Origin: Bradymonadia bacterium
GTDB lineage: Bacteria > Myxococcota_A > Bradymonadia > UBA7976 > UBA1532
DNA length: 64,000 nt
Direction of reading: 5' to 3'
NCBI GenBank assembly: GCA_046290225.1
Contig: JBKAGE010000044.1
Location: forward strand, 1 to 64,000
Below, piece after piece: positions 17,578-63,209 of this stretch. Made by a program: the position numbers and the translations under genes. Position 1 is the stretch's first letter. Every line of letters begins with the position of its first letter. The notes below the pieces were generated by a model. It was not told where the DNA came from and searched no databases. It saw only the letters and a program-made list of their open reading frames with translations.

Positions 17578-17690
17578 GAGCCTCGAACCTCACGAATGTG
17601 TCGCCTGCTCAGAGAAGTGGCGTTACGATAGTGTCTCTACAACACGAAAAGCTGAGTGAACGTGGTCCATCAGCTTTCTGGGGCAACAGC

Positions 17691-18614
17691 ATGTCATCGA
17701 CCGAGCAAGCTTCATCCGATCTCACGCCATCACAACGCGCTCGCCTCGCCCTCGACGGCCTCTCGGTGGGCGATGCCTTCGGACAGAAATTCTTCACTCA
17801 TCTCACTGATGATCTGCCGACGCCCCCATGGCGTTGGACAGACGACACCATCATGGCCATCTCGGTGGTGGAGAACCTCGAGACTCACGGAGCAATTGAC
17901 TGCCCGACCCTCGCCACTGCCTTCGCTCGCCGATATGCAGAGGACCCCTATCGTGGCTATGGCCAGGGCGCCGCGCGTCTGCTCCAGGATCTGATGCGGG
18001 GCGCTCCGTGGAAAGCCACGGCGCAGTCTCTGTTCAACGGTCAGGGCTCGATGGGCAATGGCGGTGCCATGAGGGTGGCGCCTCTCGGCGCCTGGTTCGC
18101 CGACGCCCCTCTTGAAGTGCTCGTGGACAACGCCCGGCGCAGCGCCGAGGTCACCCACACTCACCCTGAAGGGCAAGCCGGTGCCGTTGCTGTCGCGGTG
18201 GCTACAGCGTGGGCCTGGCAGTGGTTTCAAACCCCGGTCTACGAACGCCCTCACCCCATGGGCATGGTCGAGGCGGCGCTGAACGCCATCGACGAGGGGC
18301 CCACAGCCAATCGTCTGGGGTTTGCATTGGAGCTCGGCATCGACGGGCACCAGCTCTCAGCCGTGAACCAGCTGGGCAACGGCAGCCGCATCACTGCACC
18401 CGACACGGTGCCCTTCTGTCTCTGGGCAGCAGCACGACATCTGGGGAAGTTCGAGAAGGGATTGTGGTTCACCATGCGCGCAGGGGGCGACATCGACACC
18501 AACTGCGCAATTGTAGGCGGAATTCTGGCCATGACAGATGCGGTGCCTCCTCAATGGCTCACCTGTCGCGAATACCTTCCGATCGCCCCAACGGCCCAAA
18601 CCGAAACACGCTGA
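17691..18614 (+). CDS. ADP-ribosylglycohydrolase family protein
   Basis: GLSVGDAFG, WTDDT, RGYG, SMGNGGAMRVAP, THTH, GGDIDTN..IVG motifs. Confidence 0.92.
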   Translation: MSSTEQASSDLTPSQRARLALDGLSVGDAFGQKFFTHLTDDLPTPPWRWTDDTIMAISVVENLETHGAIDCPTLATAFARRYAEDPYRGYGQGAARLLQDLMRGAPWKATAQSLFNGQGSMGNGGAMRVAPLGAWFADAPLEVLVDNARRSAEVTHTHPEGQAGAVAVAVATAWAWQWFQTPVYERPHPMGMVEAALNAIDEGPTANRLGFALELGIDGHQLSAVNQLGNGSRITAPDTVPFCLWAAARHLGKFEKGLWFTMRAGGDIDTNCAIVGGILAMTDAVPPQWLTCREYLPIAPTAQTETR

Positions 18615-18757: not shown

Positions 18758-18773
18758 TGGCACACGATCTGCA
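18758..18773 (+). promoter_or_regulatory. sigma54 (-24/-12) promoter
   Basis: TGGCACACGATCTGCA: GG and GC at exact -24/-12 spacing; predicted +1 near 18784 coincides with the base of a long stem. Confidence 0.7.
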
Positions 18774-39741: not shown

Positions 39742-40889
39742 TGCCCTTCTCCTCTCTGGAGCGTCTCCGTCGCCCGACTCCACACCCGAGCCATTTGACG
39801 CTGCGCTGCGCGGCGAGCAGGACCCTCGATGGCCCGCGCCAGAACTTCCAGAGCTTCCCCTGGTGGACGCGTCCTGAGCCGTGACGCCAGGGCGCCATGG
39901 ACCACGAGGCGATCTGCTCGCATGGTTGCTTCATCGGCACCGGCGTCGCCCCATTCAAGTGGAATTGCTTCGAGAATCGCCGCGAGGGCCGGCGCCATGA
40001 GCTGTGGCGCCCTGGGCGGAAGGGCCCGAACGAGGGCATTCCGGAAGCTCGCAGGCAACGGCTGACCGACGATGGGACCCTCAACTTCGGGCAAAGAGTG
40101 AGGCCCGTCGACGAGGGTGCCCACACCATCGAGGGTGGCCACGGTGGCCCAGTGCTCACCAGCAAGAAAAACCTCGGCGCTGAAGCCTTCTTCGGTGCGC
40201 ACCAGCCTCCGGGTGCGACCTCGGGTGCTGAACATCTGGCCGTTGACGTAGACCGCTTCGACCTCGTCCCGCCGCTGCACGCACACCTGTGGGTGGGTCC
40301 ACGACCACATGAACGGTCGCGGGTGCCAGTCCACGGCAGGGGTCTTGTTGGCCGTGGTCAGCGCGCTTTCTTCCACCCCCTCTGTAAACCGCGCGCAGGT
40401 GGCCACGAGATCGATGGCGTCCTCCTCACCCAGCGCGAAAGACGTGTGCAGCGCATCGAACAAGGCCTCTGTCGGATAGGGCCCGGTGTAGCGCAGAGAC
40501 GACAACCCCGCGATCTGGGCCGTGATGGAGACAGCATTGAGGATGGCAGCCCCACCCCCTTGAGGCAGCCGCCCGGGCTCGGCGAGAGGGGGGATGCACT
40601 TGGGGCGCGACCACTTCACCTGCCGAAATGGGGTGATGGGCCGCTCGATGGCTTCGTTGCTCATGGCCTCGGCCTGATCGTCGAAGGGGCCACAGACGAG
40701 ATCGCACCGCCCGAGCACAGGATGTTGCGCCTGGGCGGTGAGCACGGTGATCCACTGCCCTCCGGGCAACTTGAGCGCCATCCGGCTCAACGTCTCCGAG
40801 CCCCACTGAGCGATGATGTAGGGGGTGTCGCCGCCCACGCTGAGCACACGGCCTTCTTCGGCGTGGATGTCGAGTTCGGACGAATGCAT
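39738..40889 (-). CDS. Hypothetical protein
   Basis: RBS AGGAGG before ATG 40889; long ORF coupled to DUF429; YTGPYPTEALF motif. Confidence 0.75.
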   Translation of the reverse strand: MHSSELDIHAEEGRVLSVGGDTPYIIAQWGSETLSRMALKLPGGQWITVLTAQAQHPVLGRCDLVCGPFDDQAEAMSNEAIERPITPFRQVKWSRPKCIPPLAEPGRLPQGGGAAILNAVSITAQIAGLSSLRYTGPYPTEALFDALHTSFALGEEDAIDLVATCARFTEGVEESALTTANKTPAVDWHPRPFMWSWTHPQVCVQRRDEVEAVYVNGQMFSTRGRTRRLVRTEEGFSAEVFLAGEHWATVATLDGVGTLVDGPHSLPEVEGPIVGQPLPASFRNALVRALPPRAPQLMAPALAAILEAIPLEWGDAGADEATMRADRLVVHGALASRLRTRPPGEALEVLARAIEGPARRAAQRQMARVWSRATETLQRGEGQ

Positions 40890-41067
40890 GTTACCTCCTG
40901 GCCGCCGATCAAAGATGCCCGGGCGATATGGTGGTTGTGGGGGTGCACGCTGACCCACGGGGTCCCACGGTGTATCACACCCCACGGCAGAGGCTGACGC
41001 GCTAAATTGCGCACCCAGCTATCCAGATGGCGCCACAGCATGACATTCGATACAGAACAACACGACG

Positions 41068-41080
41068 TAAACCACTGAAA
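41068..41080 (-). promoter_or_regulatory. IHF-like site
   Basis: TAAACCACTGAAA resembles YAA-N4-TTGATW, 30 bp upstream of the sigma54 motif. Confidence 0.4.
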
Positions 41081-41110
41081 TCACCTCCCGACAGCCATCC
41101 CCGGCTTTTC

Positions 41111-41126
41111 TGGCACGCCCTCTGCT
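41111..41126 (+). promoter_or_regulatory. sigma54 (-24/-12) promoter of the tRNA operon
   Basis: TGGCACGCCCTCTGCT vs consensus TGGCACG-N4-TTGCW (one mismatch). Confidence 0.75.
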
Positions 41127-41224
41127 CTAGTGCTGGGCGCCGCATCGAAGCGGACCGGGGGCGCCACTCTCGCCCCGCTTCGAGAAGGCCTGAGCAGCTG
41201 CTTTCATGCACGTATTGCTCATGT

Positions 41225-41296
<72 letters not shown>

Positions 41297-41423
41297 CAGT
41301 GGATTTGGGCGGGGCCTCGCGGGGGCGGGGTTTCGGGGTGCGGGCACGCCAGAGGTGGTGATTCTCATGTCACCGCCTCTGACGTGAGGTCCTCTGATGG
41401 CTTGACCATCAGGCGACCTTGTT

Positions 41424-41498
41424 TCCAGGGTAGCTCAGGGGTAGAGCATCCGGTTGTGATCCGGTGAGTCACGGGTTCGAATCCCGTCCTTGGAACCA
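41424..41498 (+). tRNA. tRNA with GTG (His) anticodon, non-canonical: U-1, U1-A72, A73
   Basis: TCCAGGG-TA-GCTC-AGGGGTA-GAGC-A-TCCGG-TTGTGAT-CCGGT-GAGTC-ACGGG-TTCGAAT-CCCGT-CCTTGGA-A-CCA. Confidence 0.88.
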
Positions 41499-41501
41499 TG
41501 T

Positions 41502-41530
41502 AGAGCCCAGGTCGTCGACCTGGGCTTTTT
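41502..41530 (+). terminator. Rho-independent terminator of the tRNA operon
   Basis: AGCCCAGGTC-GTC-GACCTGGGCT-TTTT. Confidence 0.85.
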
Positions 41531-41664
41531 CATTCCGTGCGCCACTGAGTTTGGCGCGATCACTCAAGTCGAGCCTGATCACGGCCCCTACCTTTCGAGT
41601 GTGCGCTGCGGATGATGCACATCCGCAGCCTGGCGTCTTCTCACGCGTACACTCGGAGGTCTCC

Positions 41665-42576
41665 ATGCGCCCGACCAGACTGACTCCAAAACTCCTTGTC
41701 TCTACCACTTCATGGGTGGTCCTTCTGGTGTGCCTGCTCTGGGCAGGCTCCGGCTGCGCACCCAACGCGGCGTATCGTGTCGATGTGCCTCAGAGCGATC
41801 AGGCCAAGGTGCGGAGGCGGCCCGCTGGCGAAGTCCTGATGGTCTTGTCGGCGGCCCCGATACAGACGCTCGCTGACGGCACCACGAGAGAAACCGGATA
41901 CTTCCTCAACGAGTTCTACGAGCCATATCAGGCCCTCGTCGGCGCCGGTTACAGCATCACCATCGCCACGCTTGACGGCCAACCCCCGAGCCTCGATCCC
42001 GAGAGCCTCCAGGAAAAGTACTGGAATGAAGGCCCTGAGACGCTGGCCCAGGCCCGGGCCCTCGTCGAGACTCTGCCTCAGATGAGATCTCCCGTGCCCC
42101 TCGCAGAGGCAGCTCGTCGGGCAGATGCCTTCCAGGCCCTCGTCGTCCCCGGAGGTCAGGGGGTCATGGTCGATCTGCTCGACGCGCCGACGCTGCATGC
42201 CCTCATTCGAGACTTCGCCGCCACGGATCGACCCATCGGCCTCATCTGCCATGCGCCAGCGATCTTGAGCCGGGTGAACAACCTCCCTGCTTCGTTTACC
42301 AACCGACACGTCACCTCGGTCTCGGGCATCGAGGAATGGTACATCGAGTCGTTCGTCATGGACGCCGAGGCCCAGGTGCGAGGCATCGGCGATCGACTGG
42401 AGACTGCAGGCTTTCGCCACGAGAGCGGCTTCCCGGGCAAGTCGCACGCAGTGCGGGACTGCAACCTCGTCACCGATCAAAACCCCTTCTCTGGTGAAGC
42501 GTTCAATACACTGTTCCTCGATGCACTTCGGGATTGGCGACGGGGCGGACGCTGTGTGCCCAACGTGGATGGCTAG
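41665..42576 (+). CDS. DJ-1/PfpI (type 1 glutamine amidotransferase-like) lipoprotein
   Basis: RBS GGAGG; lipobox GSGC; TGYFLNE, PGGQG, ICHAP, TDQNP. Confidence 0.85.
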   Translation: MRPTRLTPKLLVSTTSWVVLLVCLLWAGSGCAPNAAYRVDVPQSDQAKVRRRPAGEVLMVLSAAPIQTLADGTTRETGYFLNEFYEPYQALVGAGYSITIATLDGQPPSLDPESLQEKYWNEGPETLAQARALVETLPQMRSPVPLAEAARRADAFQALVVPGGQGVMVDLLDAPTLHALIRDFAATDRPIGLICHAPAILSRVNNLPASFTNRHVTSVSGIEEWYIESFVMDAEAQVRGIGDRLETAGFRHESGFPGKSHAVRDCNLVTDQNPFSGEAFNTLFLDALRDWRRGGRCVPNVDG

Positions 42577-61876: not shown

Positions 61877-63121
61877 TTACTCTGCTTTGAATGCTGGGTG
61901 ACTCCATCCCATCCCGAAGCACTCGAAACACATCATCTCGACGCCAGCGTGCTGATGCCTCCCCCGACCTTGACAATGTGTGCACTCAAGACTGCAGTCA
62001 GGCCGGCGCGGTAGGAGTGTGGTCAACTCGGCGCATTGTCGAATCTTCGCACCCGCATGAATGGCCAGGCACACCTCTCCCAAATGTTTTGCGGGGCGCA
62101 CTGGCACCTCACCCTCGAGATCGTCCATATACGGGTGAAAGAACACGTCGCCATGCATTGATAGATAGACTGCGTCGCCCAGACCATGGGTCATCACGAC
62201 AGCGTCATGCTCAATCTCAAGCTGATCTTGAGAGCCTGTGTGCCTGAGTCTCGACAACGTGCGCCTCATGTCGTCGGAAAACACCCGCCTCCACGAAGTC
62301 TGCATGAGTGCCTGAAACGGCGGCGCCGTCTGGCGGCGCTTTACCGGCTCGTACACGGCGAAGATCACCCAATCGAAAGCACCCGCAAAGCGTGGGCTGC
62401 TCAAAAGCTCGCCCCAGATGCCCGCCACCATCTCTGGTGGGCATCCGAATACGCCACATCCCCACGCCCCGAGCAACACAGTGCGGTGTCCTTCGGCCTC
62501 GGCCACGGCGAGGACCCCGGCAGCCCGACGACGTAACGCCTGCTCCACTTCGGGCATACAGTCGGGATCTCGCCGCATGGCTTGTGTGGCGTTCGGAGCG
62601 GGCGCGGTGATGACCGACGCCTCGAAGGGGGCAGAGAGCAGATCGCGGTTCTTGCGCCTGAAGAAGGGCACCTTGGGTGAATAGATGATGTGATCGGTAT
62701 AGAGCATGGACCGGCAGGCCTCGTTGCTCTCGTAGTATTCACGTTGCGGACCCACACAACGATACAGCGCCGAGCAGCGGGCGAGATCTTCTTCTTGGGC
62801 CTTGGCCCCTCTGAGAAAACCCCCGCTGGGATTCCGGGCCGAGGCAAAGCTGAGCAGAGCCAGATCGGTGACCCCCATCTGCGTCACCAGCTGCCAGGCA
62901 GCTTCTTGAGTCCGCATGTCCATGAAGGTGACCAGGGGGTGCTGCCCAGGCCGATCAGGGCCGTCGCACAGCCGCATCACCTCGTGGGGTGTATAGGTGC
63001 AGGTGTCTTCGATGGCGTGCTGCACCGAGGCAGAGATGTCCACCCACTCACCCTCGGGGTTCTGGTATCGACCCTCGTCGGTGATGTGCATTGTGTCTTT
63101 GGCAACGCCTCGCAGCGACAT
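61877..63121 (-). CDS. TIGR02452/DUF2263 bacterial PARG-like macrodomain protein with extra C-terminal Zn-finger domain
   Basis: FASARNPSGGFLRGAKAQEEDL, IYSPKVP, ITAPAPN, LGAWGCGVF; C-terminal CTHCQGRG...CFECFGMGW. Confidence 0.88.
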   Translation of the reverse strand: MSLRGVAKDTMHITDEGRYQNPEGEWVDISASVQHAIEDTCTYTPHEVMRLCDGPDRPGQHPLVTFMDMRTQEAAWQLVTQMGVTDLALLSFASARNPSGGFLRGAKAQEEDLARCSALYRCVGPQREYYESNEACRSMLYTDHIIYSPKVPFFRRKNRDLLSAPFEASVITAPAPNATQAMRRDPDCMPEVEQALRRRAAGVLAVAEAEGHRTVLLGAWGCGVFGCPPEMVAGIWGELLSSPRFAGAFDWVIFAVYEPVKRRQTAPPFQALMQTSWRRVFSDDMRRTLSRLRHTGSQDQLEIEHDAVVMTHGLGDAVYLSMHGDVFFHPYMDDLEGEVPVRPAKHLGEVCLAIHAGAKIRQCAELTTLLPRRPDCSLECTHCQGRGRHQHAGVEMMCFECFGMGWSHPAFKAE

Positions 63122-63209
63122 GGGACCCCCTGTGTGAACCGCACTTACTGTAGCGTTCACACGAAGAGGGTTCTACCTCGATTTTTCGCAGGGGGCTCTA
63201 CGAGGTGGA

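Follow-up and report, generated by a model that had tools for sequence, protein, structure and literature searches.

Departures from the encoded G-1:C73 pair of canonical bacterial tRNA-His have been described for one alphaproteobacterial clade, in which the tRNA lacks G-1 (PMC4338351). The tRNA-His of Caulobacter crescentus has no encoded G-1, carries A73 and a GUG anticodon and opens on a weak first pair, G1·U72, whose U72 is a 91-fold element for the cognate HisRS (PMC3064791). In that enzyme, the GG dipeptide of the T. thermophilus G-1 pocket is replaced by DD, which blocks the pocket (PMC4357726). Eukaryotic tRNA-His likewise combines A73 with the lack of an encoded G-1 and is matured by Thg1 in cells with a eukaryote-type HisRS. 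Bacterial Thg1-like proteins (TLPs) prefer templated addition, unlike eukaryotic Thg1, and have been called unneeded for tRNA-His since G-1 is encoded (PMC3061083, PMC3245924). The B. thuringiensis enzyme (BtTLP) places G or U at -1 of A73 tRNA-His in vitro, at 108 (G-1) and 230 (U-1) per M per s, compared with 5500 for G-1 on C73, which makes it about 50-fold and 24-fold less efficient, respectively (PMC3061083); it also rescues yeast thg1 with only A73 tRNA (PMC3061083, PMC3245924). Reviews leave the in vivo role of bacterial TLPs open (PMC3245924, PMC6471195) because bacteria are thought to encode G-1, and the charging of the U-1 tRNA-His forms carried by human cells is left open as well (PMC5238791).

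Supernumerary tRNA genes are known from L-arrays such as the Anabaena trn operon, single arrays of 20-43 genes; the tRNAs of the Anabaena array are induced by stress and carry amino acids (PMC8421152). Sigma-54-type promoters precede tRNA-shaped RNAs in the repair operons with Ro60 and YrlA, which are driven by sigma-54 and RtcR (PMC4987338, PMC4201824).

The window (the whole stretch of 64,000 nucleotides analysed here) contains an intact tRNA-His(GUG) gene at 41424-41498 on the plus strand, called by ARAGORN in agreement with a direct reading of the sequence and present in environmental contigs. It matches the full cloverleaf of Rfam RF00005 (model positions 1-71) with 63.1 bits and an E-value of 6.5e-13, at a gathering score of 29. 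As the host has a second, housekeeping tRNA-His, we refer to this gene as the spare copy. Its acceptor stem comprises seven pairs beginning with U1-A72, C2-G71 and C3-G70, followed by the discriminator A73 and an encoded CCA. The anticodon loop is a normal 7-nt loop (U32, U33, GUG, A37, U38), the D-loop is short and without 20a, and a U27·U43 mismatch, marked as non-standard in the Rfam alignment, weakens the anticodon stem. The spare copy thus has a GUG anticodon in a His-type loop and no encoded G-1:C73. The letters on which the initial annotation relied (T at -1, U1-A72, A73, U27·U43 and the encoded CCA) are all borne out by the sequence, ARAGORN and Rfam. Folding for minimum free energy (MFE) gave a z-score of -1.06, no better than shuffles, as is common for tRNAs; the tRNA identity of the gene is carried by the covariance model and not by MFE folding. 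The T at position -1 (41423, plus strand) could pair with A73, as judged from sequence and folding. It is the commonest state at this position in the host genome (52/90 parsed tRNA genes, and 25/44 of those with A73) and is not special by itself. An encoded U-1 kept by RNase P was considered and rejected: the resulting eight-pair stem is possible on paper, but more than half of the A73 tRNAs of the host have the same U-1/A73 combination.

The body had been described as Asn-like, which holds for the first three pairs only, because positions 32 and 38 of the loop are of the His type found in relatives. U32/U38 occurs in 25/25 parsed tRNA-His genes of relatives and in 0/25 tRNA-Asn genes, the latter carrying C32/A38 and G73 in all 25 cases. 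An anticodon slip from tRNA-Asn was likewise rejected, as the loop departs from Asn at 32, 36 and 38 and the discriminator 73 does so as well.

To place the acceptor end among known genes, a strict acceptor-end pattern was run over 185,579 species genomes. It yielded six loci (L055-L060), each with a tRNA-His that has T-1, U1-A72 and A73 and lies directly before hisS. Three of the loci belong to Acidobacteria (Bryobacterales, Solibacteraceae) and three to Bacteroidota (two Saprospiraceae), and a metagenome contig (L306) holds a seventh hisS cassette. A looser pattern gave 55 loci in species genomes, 13 of them with an ARAGORN His call, and added no U1-A72 locus to the six; the remainder consists mostly of chance matches and of sequences whose acceptor ends do not pair. 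Viral and metagenome scans gave 2 and 8 loci, namely the L306 cassette and mostly phage-like tRNA clusters. Because the same end marks the tRNA-His beside hisS in six genomes, these comparisons indicate that U1-A72/A73 is a natural histidine type and not an Asn body. The spare copy shares T-1, U1-A72, C2-G71, C3-G70 and A73 with the hisS-linked class and is identical to its best match at 43/57 compared positions, a figure that is partly circular because the cassette rows were picked for their common 3' end. The settings differ: in the hisS-linked class, hisS is adjacent, each of the five genomes tested out of six has one HisRS, and Thg1 was found in 0/5 of them, their completeness not being given, whereas the host copy is orphaned, has a tRNA-Asn as its partner and shares its genome with a Thg1-like gene. 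No second tRNA-His was found in five cassette genomes among the 12/16 loose pattern matches run through ARAGORN; one of the other four is the cassette itself, and three lie outside this check. In the literature searched, mostly open-access main texts without supplements, we found no account of the U1-A72/A73 class or of an orphan spare copy.

The host genome (8.58 Mb, 99% complete) gave 96 ARAGORN tRNA calls, a few of them doubtful. Beside a housekeeping set, they include a second, divergent one whose genes are grouped by amino acid into small, scattered blocks, the largest with 10 genes; the spare tRNA-His belongs to this second set. As in L-arrays, extra divergent isodecoders that are patchy among relatives thus stand beside a full housekeeping set. 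In contrast to the single long array, the host's spare genes are dispersed, and the unit of interest consists of two genes only. Of 31 order genomes searched, 27 gave a match, and among these the host alone has two tRNA-His genes; a DNA search of 41 genomes for an orthologous unit returned generic tRNA matches only. At the level of the class, A73 tRNA-His occurs in 5/113 genomes, of which the host alone combines it with U1-A72.

The first gene of the unit is a spare tRNA-Asn(GUU) with G1-C72 and G73 at 41225-41297 (plus strand; ARAGORN; Rfam 69.6 bits over the full model). Its G1-C72 pair recurs in 2/25 parsed tRNA-Asn copies of relatives. It also has a U·U mismatch at 6·67, and the housekeeping tRNA-Asn on contig C39 has U1-A72. 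A pattern match to TGGCACG-N4-CTGCT at 41111-41126 (plus strand), 114 bases upstream of the tRNA-Asn, is presumably a sigma-54 promoter (-24/-12); no sigma-70-like site was found in 40850-41700. The host genome contains 14 exact copies of this pattern, and of the four copies of the extended pattern TGGCACG-N4-CTGCTCTAG, three lie upstream of a tRNA or tRNA-like gene, including two at Ro60 loci. A second sigma-54-type site lies in the window at 18758. An imperfect palindrome at 40997-41013 (plus strand), 114 nt upstream of the promoter and partly common to two Ro60 loci, is a weak candidate for an enhancer. An enhancer in common with the Ro60 loci was rejected: an upstream 10-mer is unique to the tRNA unit and the Ro60 locus on C34 but is not above chance, as words of this length are in common with 4/47 other promoters and 56/1128 promoter pairs share 10 or more bases.

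The two tRNA genes are separated by a spacer (41298-41422, plus strand) in which folding and contig comparison point to three hairpins, the third at about 41386-41419. A terminator-like hairpin with a T-rich tail follows the tRNA-His at 41502-41534 (plus strand; RNAfold -20.7 kcal/mol); a simple terminator scan omitted it and listed 41400-41414 instead. The unit holds no protein gene, and its neighbours are an open reading frame (ORF) without annotation and a DJ-1/PfpI gene. No hisS lies near the spare tRNA-His; the host hisS sits on contig C35. Elsewhere in the window are an ADP-ribosylglycohydrolase gene (17598-18614) and a microbial PARG gene (61877-63160).

Contigs spanning the spare tRNA-His were found in three DNA runs (X1, X2 and X3) of three studies; no RNA run with the gene was listed. 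None of the three lists a change within the 75 tRNA-His bases, while their flanks differ; changes less than about 30 bases from a contig end are unlisted, which in X3 applies to the last 30 tRNA-His bases. In X2, the 151 aligned bases contain 11 substitutions, all of them outside the tRNA-His (P = 3.6e-4), and X1 has 9 in 278, again all outside it (P = 0.056). In X3, 10 changes are listed upstream, of which four form two compensatory pairs in the last spacer hairpin (41397/41409 and 41398/41408, both sides changed); one further pair is kept by a one-sided change and two pairs are broken. These contigs have depths of 2-3.8 and were retrieved through shared words, possibly ones within the tRNA. 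With this in mind, the spare tRNA-His is probably under selection. The X1 contig diverges from the window at 41686, just past the start of the DJ-1/PfpI gene, and its downstream neighbour is therefore different.

The initial annotation had also considered Thg1-like editing, and this route gains direct support from the rest of the genome. The housekeeping tRNA-His (C35:228775-228851), packed one base behind a tRNA-Arg(UCU), has C at -1 and C73 and likewise lacks an encoded G-1. A73, whose presence in all host tRNA-His genes the initial annotation would have counted against its reading, is therefore confined to the spare copy. An intact-looking Thg1-like gene lies at C54:6327-6722 (PF04446, 106 bits); its closest match is the B. 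thuringiensis TLP (PDB 4kgk; E = 1.6e-42), and the enzyme is thus of the TLP type that prefers templated addition. Across 24 order genomes with C73 tRNA-His, some of them incomplete and three with A73 left out, the Thg1-like gene is found in 5/5 genomes without an encoded G-1 and in 1/19 with it (Fisher P = 1.4e-4, with the caveat that the five G-1-less genomes span four genera and that kin are not independent in this test). Outside the order, it occurs in 1/28 genomes, and that one encodes G-1. We infer from this distribution that the Thg1-like enzyme supplies G-1 to the housekeeping tRNA-His. The argument that bacterial TLPs are unneeded because G-1 is encoded fails for the host genes, and in mostly open-access main texts without supplements we found no account of bacteria needing a TLP for G-1. 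The co-occurrence of the housekeeping tRNA-His and the Thg1-like gene may be a stronger lead than the spare copy.

The single HisRS of the host matches human HisRS with E = 2e-75 and E. coli HisRS with E = 1.5e-40, and its sequence identifies it as eukaryote-like. Together with A73, the missing G-1 and a Thg1-family enzyme in the same cell, this resembles the eukaryotic arrangement. A HisRS phylogeny, which the initial annotation had proposed as a check, was built as a quick tree of 56 sequences with SH-aLRT support only and C. crescentus HisRS not included. All A73-associated HisRS (the seven cassettes represented, G013, G021 and G027) fall into one clade (SH-aLRT 96); G025, G026 and three Rickettsiales-titled rows, which were outside the tRNA comparison, belong to it as well. 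The host enzyme lies outside this clade, in a family clade with SH-aLRT 98. At the position of the G-1 pocket dipeptide, the host enzyme has G-D and human HisRS has GG. The host-type motif is present in 20 order genomes, and all 18 in which a tRNA-His was found have C73. Outside the order, 28 genomes were hand-picked from 80 loci for their nearest HisRS; 26 gave a tRNA-His, all with G-1 and C73. The suggestion of an unusual HisRS is therefore not supported: there is one enzyme, and it belongs to a clade that co-occurs with C73 tRNAs. No divergent HisRS of the Caulobacter type was found in the host genome. The spare copy shares with the Caulobacter tRNA the missing G-1, A73, GUG and a weak first pair, but it is a spare gene with U1-A72 in place of G1·U72, in a host whose HisRS is of another clade.

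On balance, we consider it about an even chance (probability roughly 0.5) that the spare tRNA-His receives its -1 base from the Thg1-like enzyme and is then weakly charged by the host HisRS. The gene, which lies without its matching synthetase, would have arrived by horizontal transfer and would be transcribed conditionally by sigma-54 and an activator. After an RNase P cut at +1, the Thg1-like enzyme would use A73 as a template to add U-1 or, at a lower rate, add G-1. The host HisRS, whose closest well-known solved eukaryotic relative is the human enzyme that works on G-1/A73 tRNA, could then histidylate the product, which would serve as back-up for decoding whenever the main tRNA-His runs low or suffers damage. 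The natural histidine type of the acceptor end, selection, the His-type loop, the Thg1-like co-occurrence, the activity of BtTLP and the eukaryote-like HisRS speak for this reading, as does the charging of 23/26 tRNAs of the Anabaena array on induction (PMC8421152). Against it stand the fact that host-type HisRS was never found with A73-only tRNA-His in either genome set (18/18 and 26/26), the inefficiency of BtTLP on A73, the U27·U43 mismatch and the lack of a convincing codon-matched leader with a terminator. Somewhat more tentatively, and with the odds on the lower side of even, we propose that this lineage, like archaea and eukaryotes, shifted tRNA-His maturation from the gene to the Thg1-like enzyme, which would let it keep a foreign, eukaryote-like A73 tRNA-His as an inducible reserve charged by ordinary HisRS. 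One cell would then have two histidine identity sets, the second taken from the U1-A72/A73 class that is accompanied by its own synthetase in other genomes.

A possible but less likely reading is that the gene yields a stress-made, largely uncharged RNA that would act as a signal or lure enzymes that cut tRNAs, comparable to the tRNA-shaped RNAs next to Ro60 genes. Both G-1 and C73 are missing in a genome whose HisRS type co-occurs only with C73, three of the four extended promoter copies precede tRNA or tRNA-like genes, and the host has Ro60, RtcR and three RtcB genes; sequence conservation would fit a decoy as well. The upstream region argues otherwise. A TATCC-N5-GATA-like box, derived here from relatives and counted exactly or with one mismatch on a shorter core, lies upstream of 4/6 sigma-54 promoters found at relatives' rtcR loci and also precedes the Ro60 locus on C34. 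It is absent from the spare-tRNA unit, where the best match in 220 nt has three mismatches, and control of the unit by RtcR was rejected on this ground, with the sigma-54 promoter itself identified by pattern match only. The upstream words in common with other promoters are not above chance either. Unlike the RtcR repair operons, the unit has no protein gene, and its tRNA-His has a normal anticodon arm; the encoded CCA, the normal 7-nt anticodon loop and the intact tRNA-Asn partner (GUU, G73) fit translation, and the same acceptor end is that of a hisS-linked tRNA elsewhere.

Distinctly unlikely, in our view, is a relaxed host HisRS that charges the spare tRNA-His without a -1 base, mainly via the anticodon. 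The G-D dipeptide, at the place of GG in human and DD in C. crescentus HisRS (PMC4357726), would be compatible with it, as would the fact that neither host tRNA-His gene encodes G-1, and independence of G-1 has evolved repeatedly among HisRS of the eukaryote-type group (PMC4338351). Yet the same G-D/E/G motif occurs in relatives that keep G-1/C73, and the A73-associated enzymes all fall into another clade of the quick tree (SH-aLRT 96, host clade 98). The loss of the encoded G-1, moreover, tracks Thg1-like genes (5/5 compared with 1/19), and a HisRS indifferent to G-1 would make such genes superfluous.

It seems very unlikely that the gene is a now functionless remnant left behind by a transferred tRNA/hisS cassette or tRNA array. 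The second tRNA-His in the host alone of 27 order genomes, the lack of a nearby hisS and the U27·U43 mismatch could be read in this way, but the tRNA-His is unchanged between changed flanks, the spacer shows compensatory pairs, and the promoter pattern and terminator-like hairpin are intact.

The initial annotation had further raised recoding of His codons, with U1-A72 as a determinant for GatCAB. This argument fails: no GatB was found in the 99% complete host genome (12/14 controls positive), so that U1-A72 has no partner enzyme there, and AsnRS and GlnRS are both present. Recoding with Asn through GatCAB was rejected accordingly; the spare copy carries GUG and A73 where tRNA-Asn has GUU and G73, both of which AsnRS requires (PMC9976931). 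Mischarging would more plausibly involve GlnRS and place Gln at His codons, because U1-A72, U35, G36, A37 and U38, together with G10, count among the elements of E. coli GlnRS (PMC9976931) and the first three pairs and a non-G discriminator recur in the spare tRNA-Gln genes of the host, but we hold it to be the least probable of all, given that G34, A73, C2-G71 and C3-G70 miss the GlnRS set, that the housekeeping tRNA-His also has A37/U38, that the loop is of the His type and that the U1-A72/A73 type must read His where it is the hisS-linked tRNA.

The sigma-54-type promoter sets the unit apart from other spare blocks of the host, which have codon-matched leaders. In three such blocks (C20:227-1226, C37:77269-79067 and C42:92366-93501), short ORFs rich in the blocks' own amino acids (18/34, 20/34 and 17/31 codons) are followed by terminators; P-values range from 2e-8 to 2e-5 for ORFs that were picked after being seen. 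Leader-peptide attenuation of the tRNA-Asn/tRNA-His pair is not supported: a 12-codon ORF at 41040 has 3/11 His/Asn codons (P = 0.02, post hoc), it lies upstream of the promoter, and no terminator was found after it. Literature searches on an RtcR site or on leader-attenuated tRNA genes, covering mostly open-access main texts without supplements, returned nothing on point.

These results bear on the role of bacterial TLPs, as neither tRNA-His gene of the host encodes G-1 and the Thg1-like enzyme tracks that loss across the order. The U1-A72/A73 tRNA-His with its own HisRS, as found in acidobacteria and Bacteroidota, is a candidate for a further histidine identity set and possibly an orthogonal pair. 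If the spare tRNA-His were uncharged, it would represent a natural decoy tRNA under sigma-54 control.

Several observations extend beyond the unit itself. The TATCC-N5-GATA-like palindrome lies 58-77 bases upstream of sigma-54 promoters divergent from rtcR in four loci (L310, L311, L313 and L319) and is a candidate RtcR operator, a site given as not known in PMC4987338. Both Ro60/TROVE genes of the host (C34:374570-376950 and C35:239913-242410) have sigma-54 promoters upstream and are preceded by tRNA-shaped RNAs with enlarged anticodon arms, with an RtcR-type box at C34. Among the other spare tRNA blocks, that for Trp (C77:152519) has a short ORF with two Trp codons and a terminator, and the block at C79:72099-73132 has a terminator and no ATG-led matching ORF that we could find. 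At C42:92366 and 92651 and at C20:227 and 795, spare tRNA-Gln genes have U73 and spare tRNA-Val genes parse with U1-A72. A tRNA with a CUA (amber) anticodon, called Pyl by ARAGORN, is the last gene of a two-gene unit at C14:27995-28067.

A73 tRNA-His was also observed in relatives (L042/L184 in G013, L043/L185 in G021, L053 in G027 and L348 in G097). In G013 and G021, it is immediately followed by a divergent hisS (41% to the host enzyme), and in G097 it has G1·U72. In G074, a second His-anticodon tRNA-like sequence (L327) has a poorly paired acceptor stem and no ARAGORN call. Seven further loci (L299, L301-L304, L305 and L228), several in phage-like tRNA clusters and none with a Thg1-like gene in the locus, carry tRNA-His with A73 and a C1·A72 mismatch. 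One of them (L305) has two 5' mismatches, and templated repair would yield a U1-A72 end.
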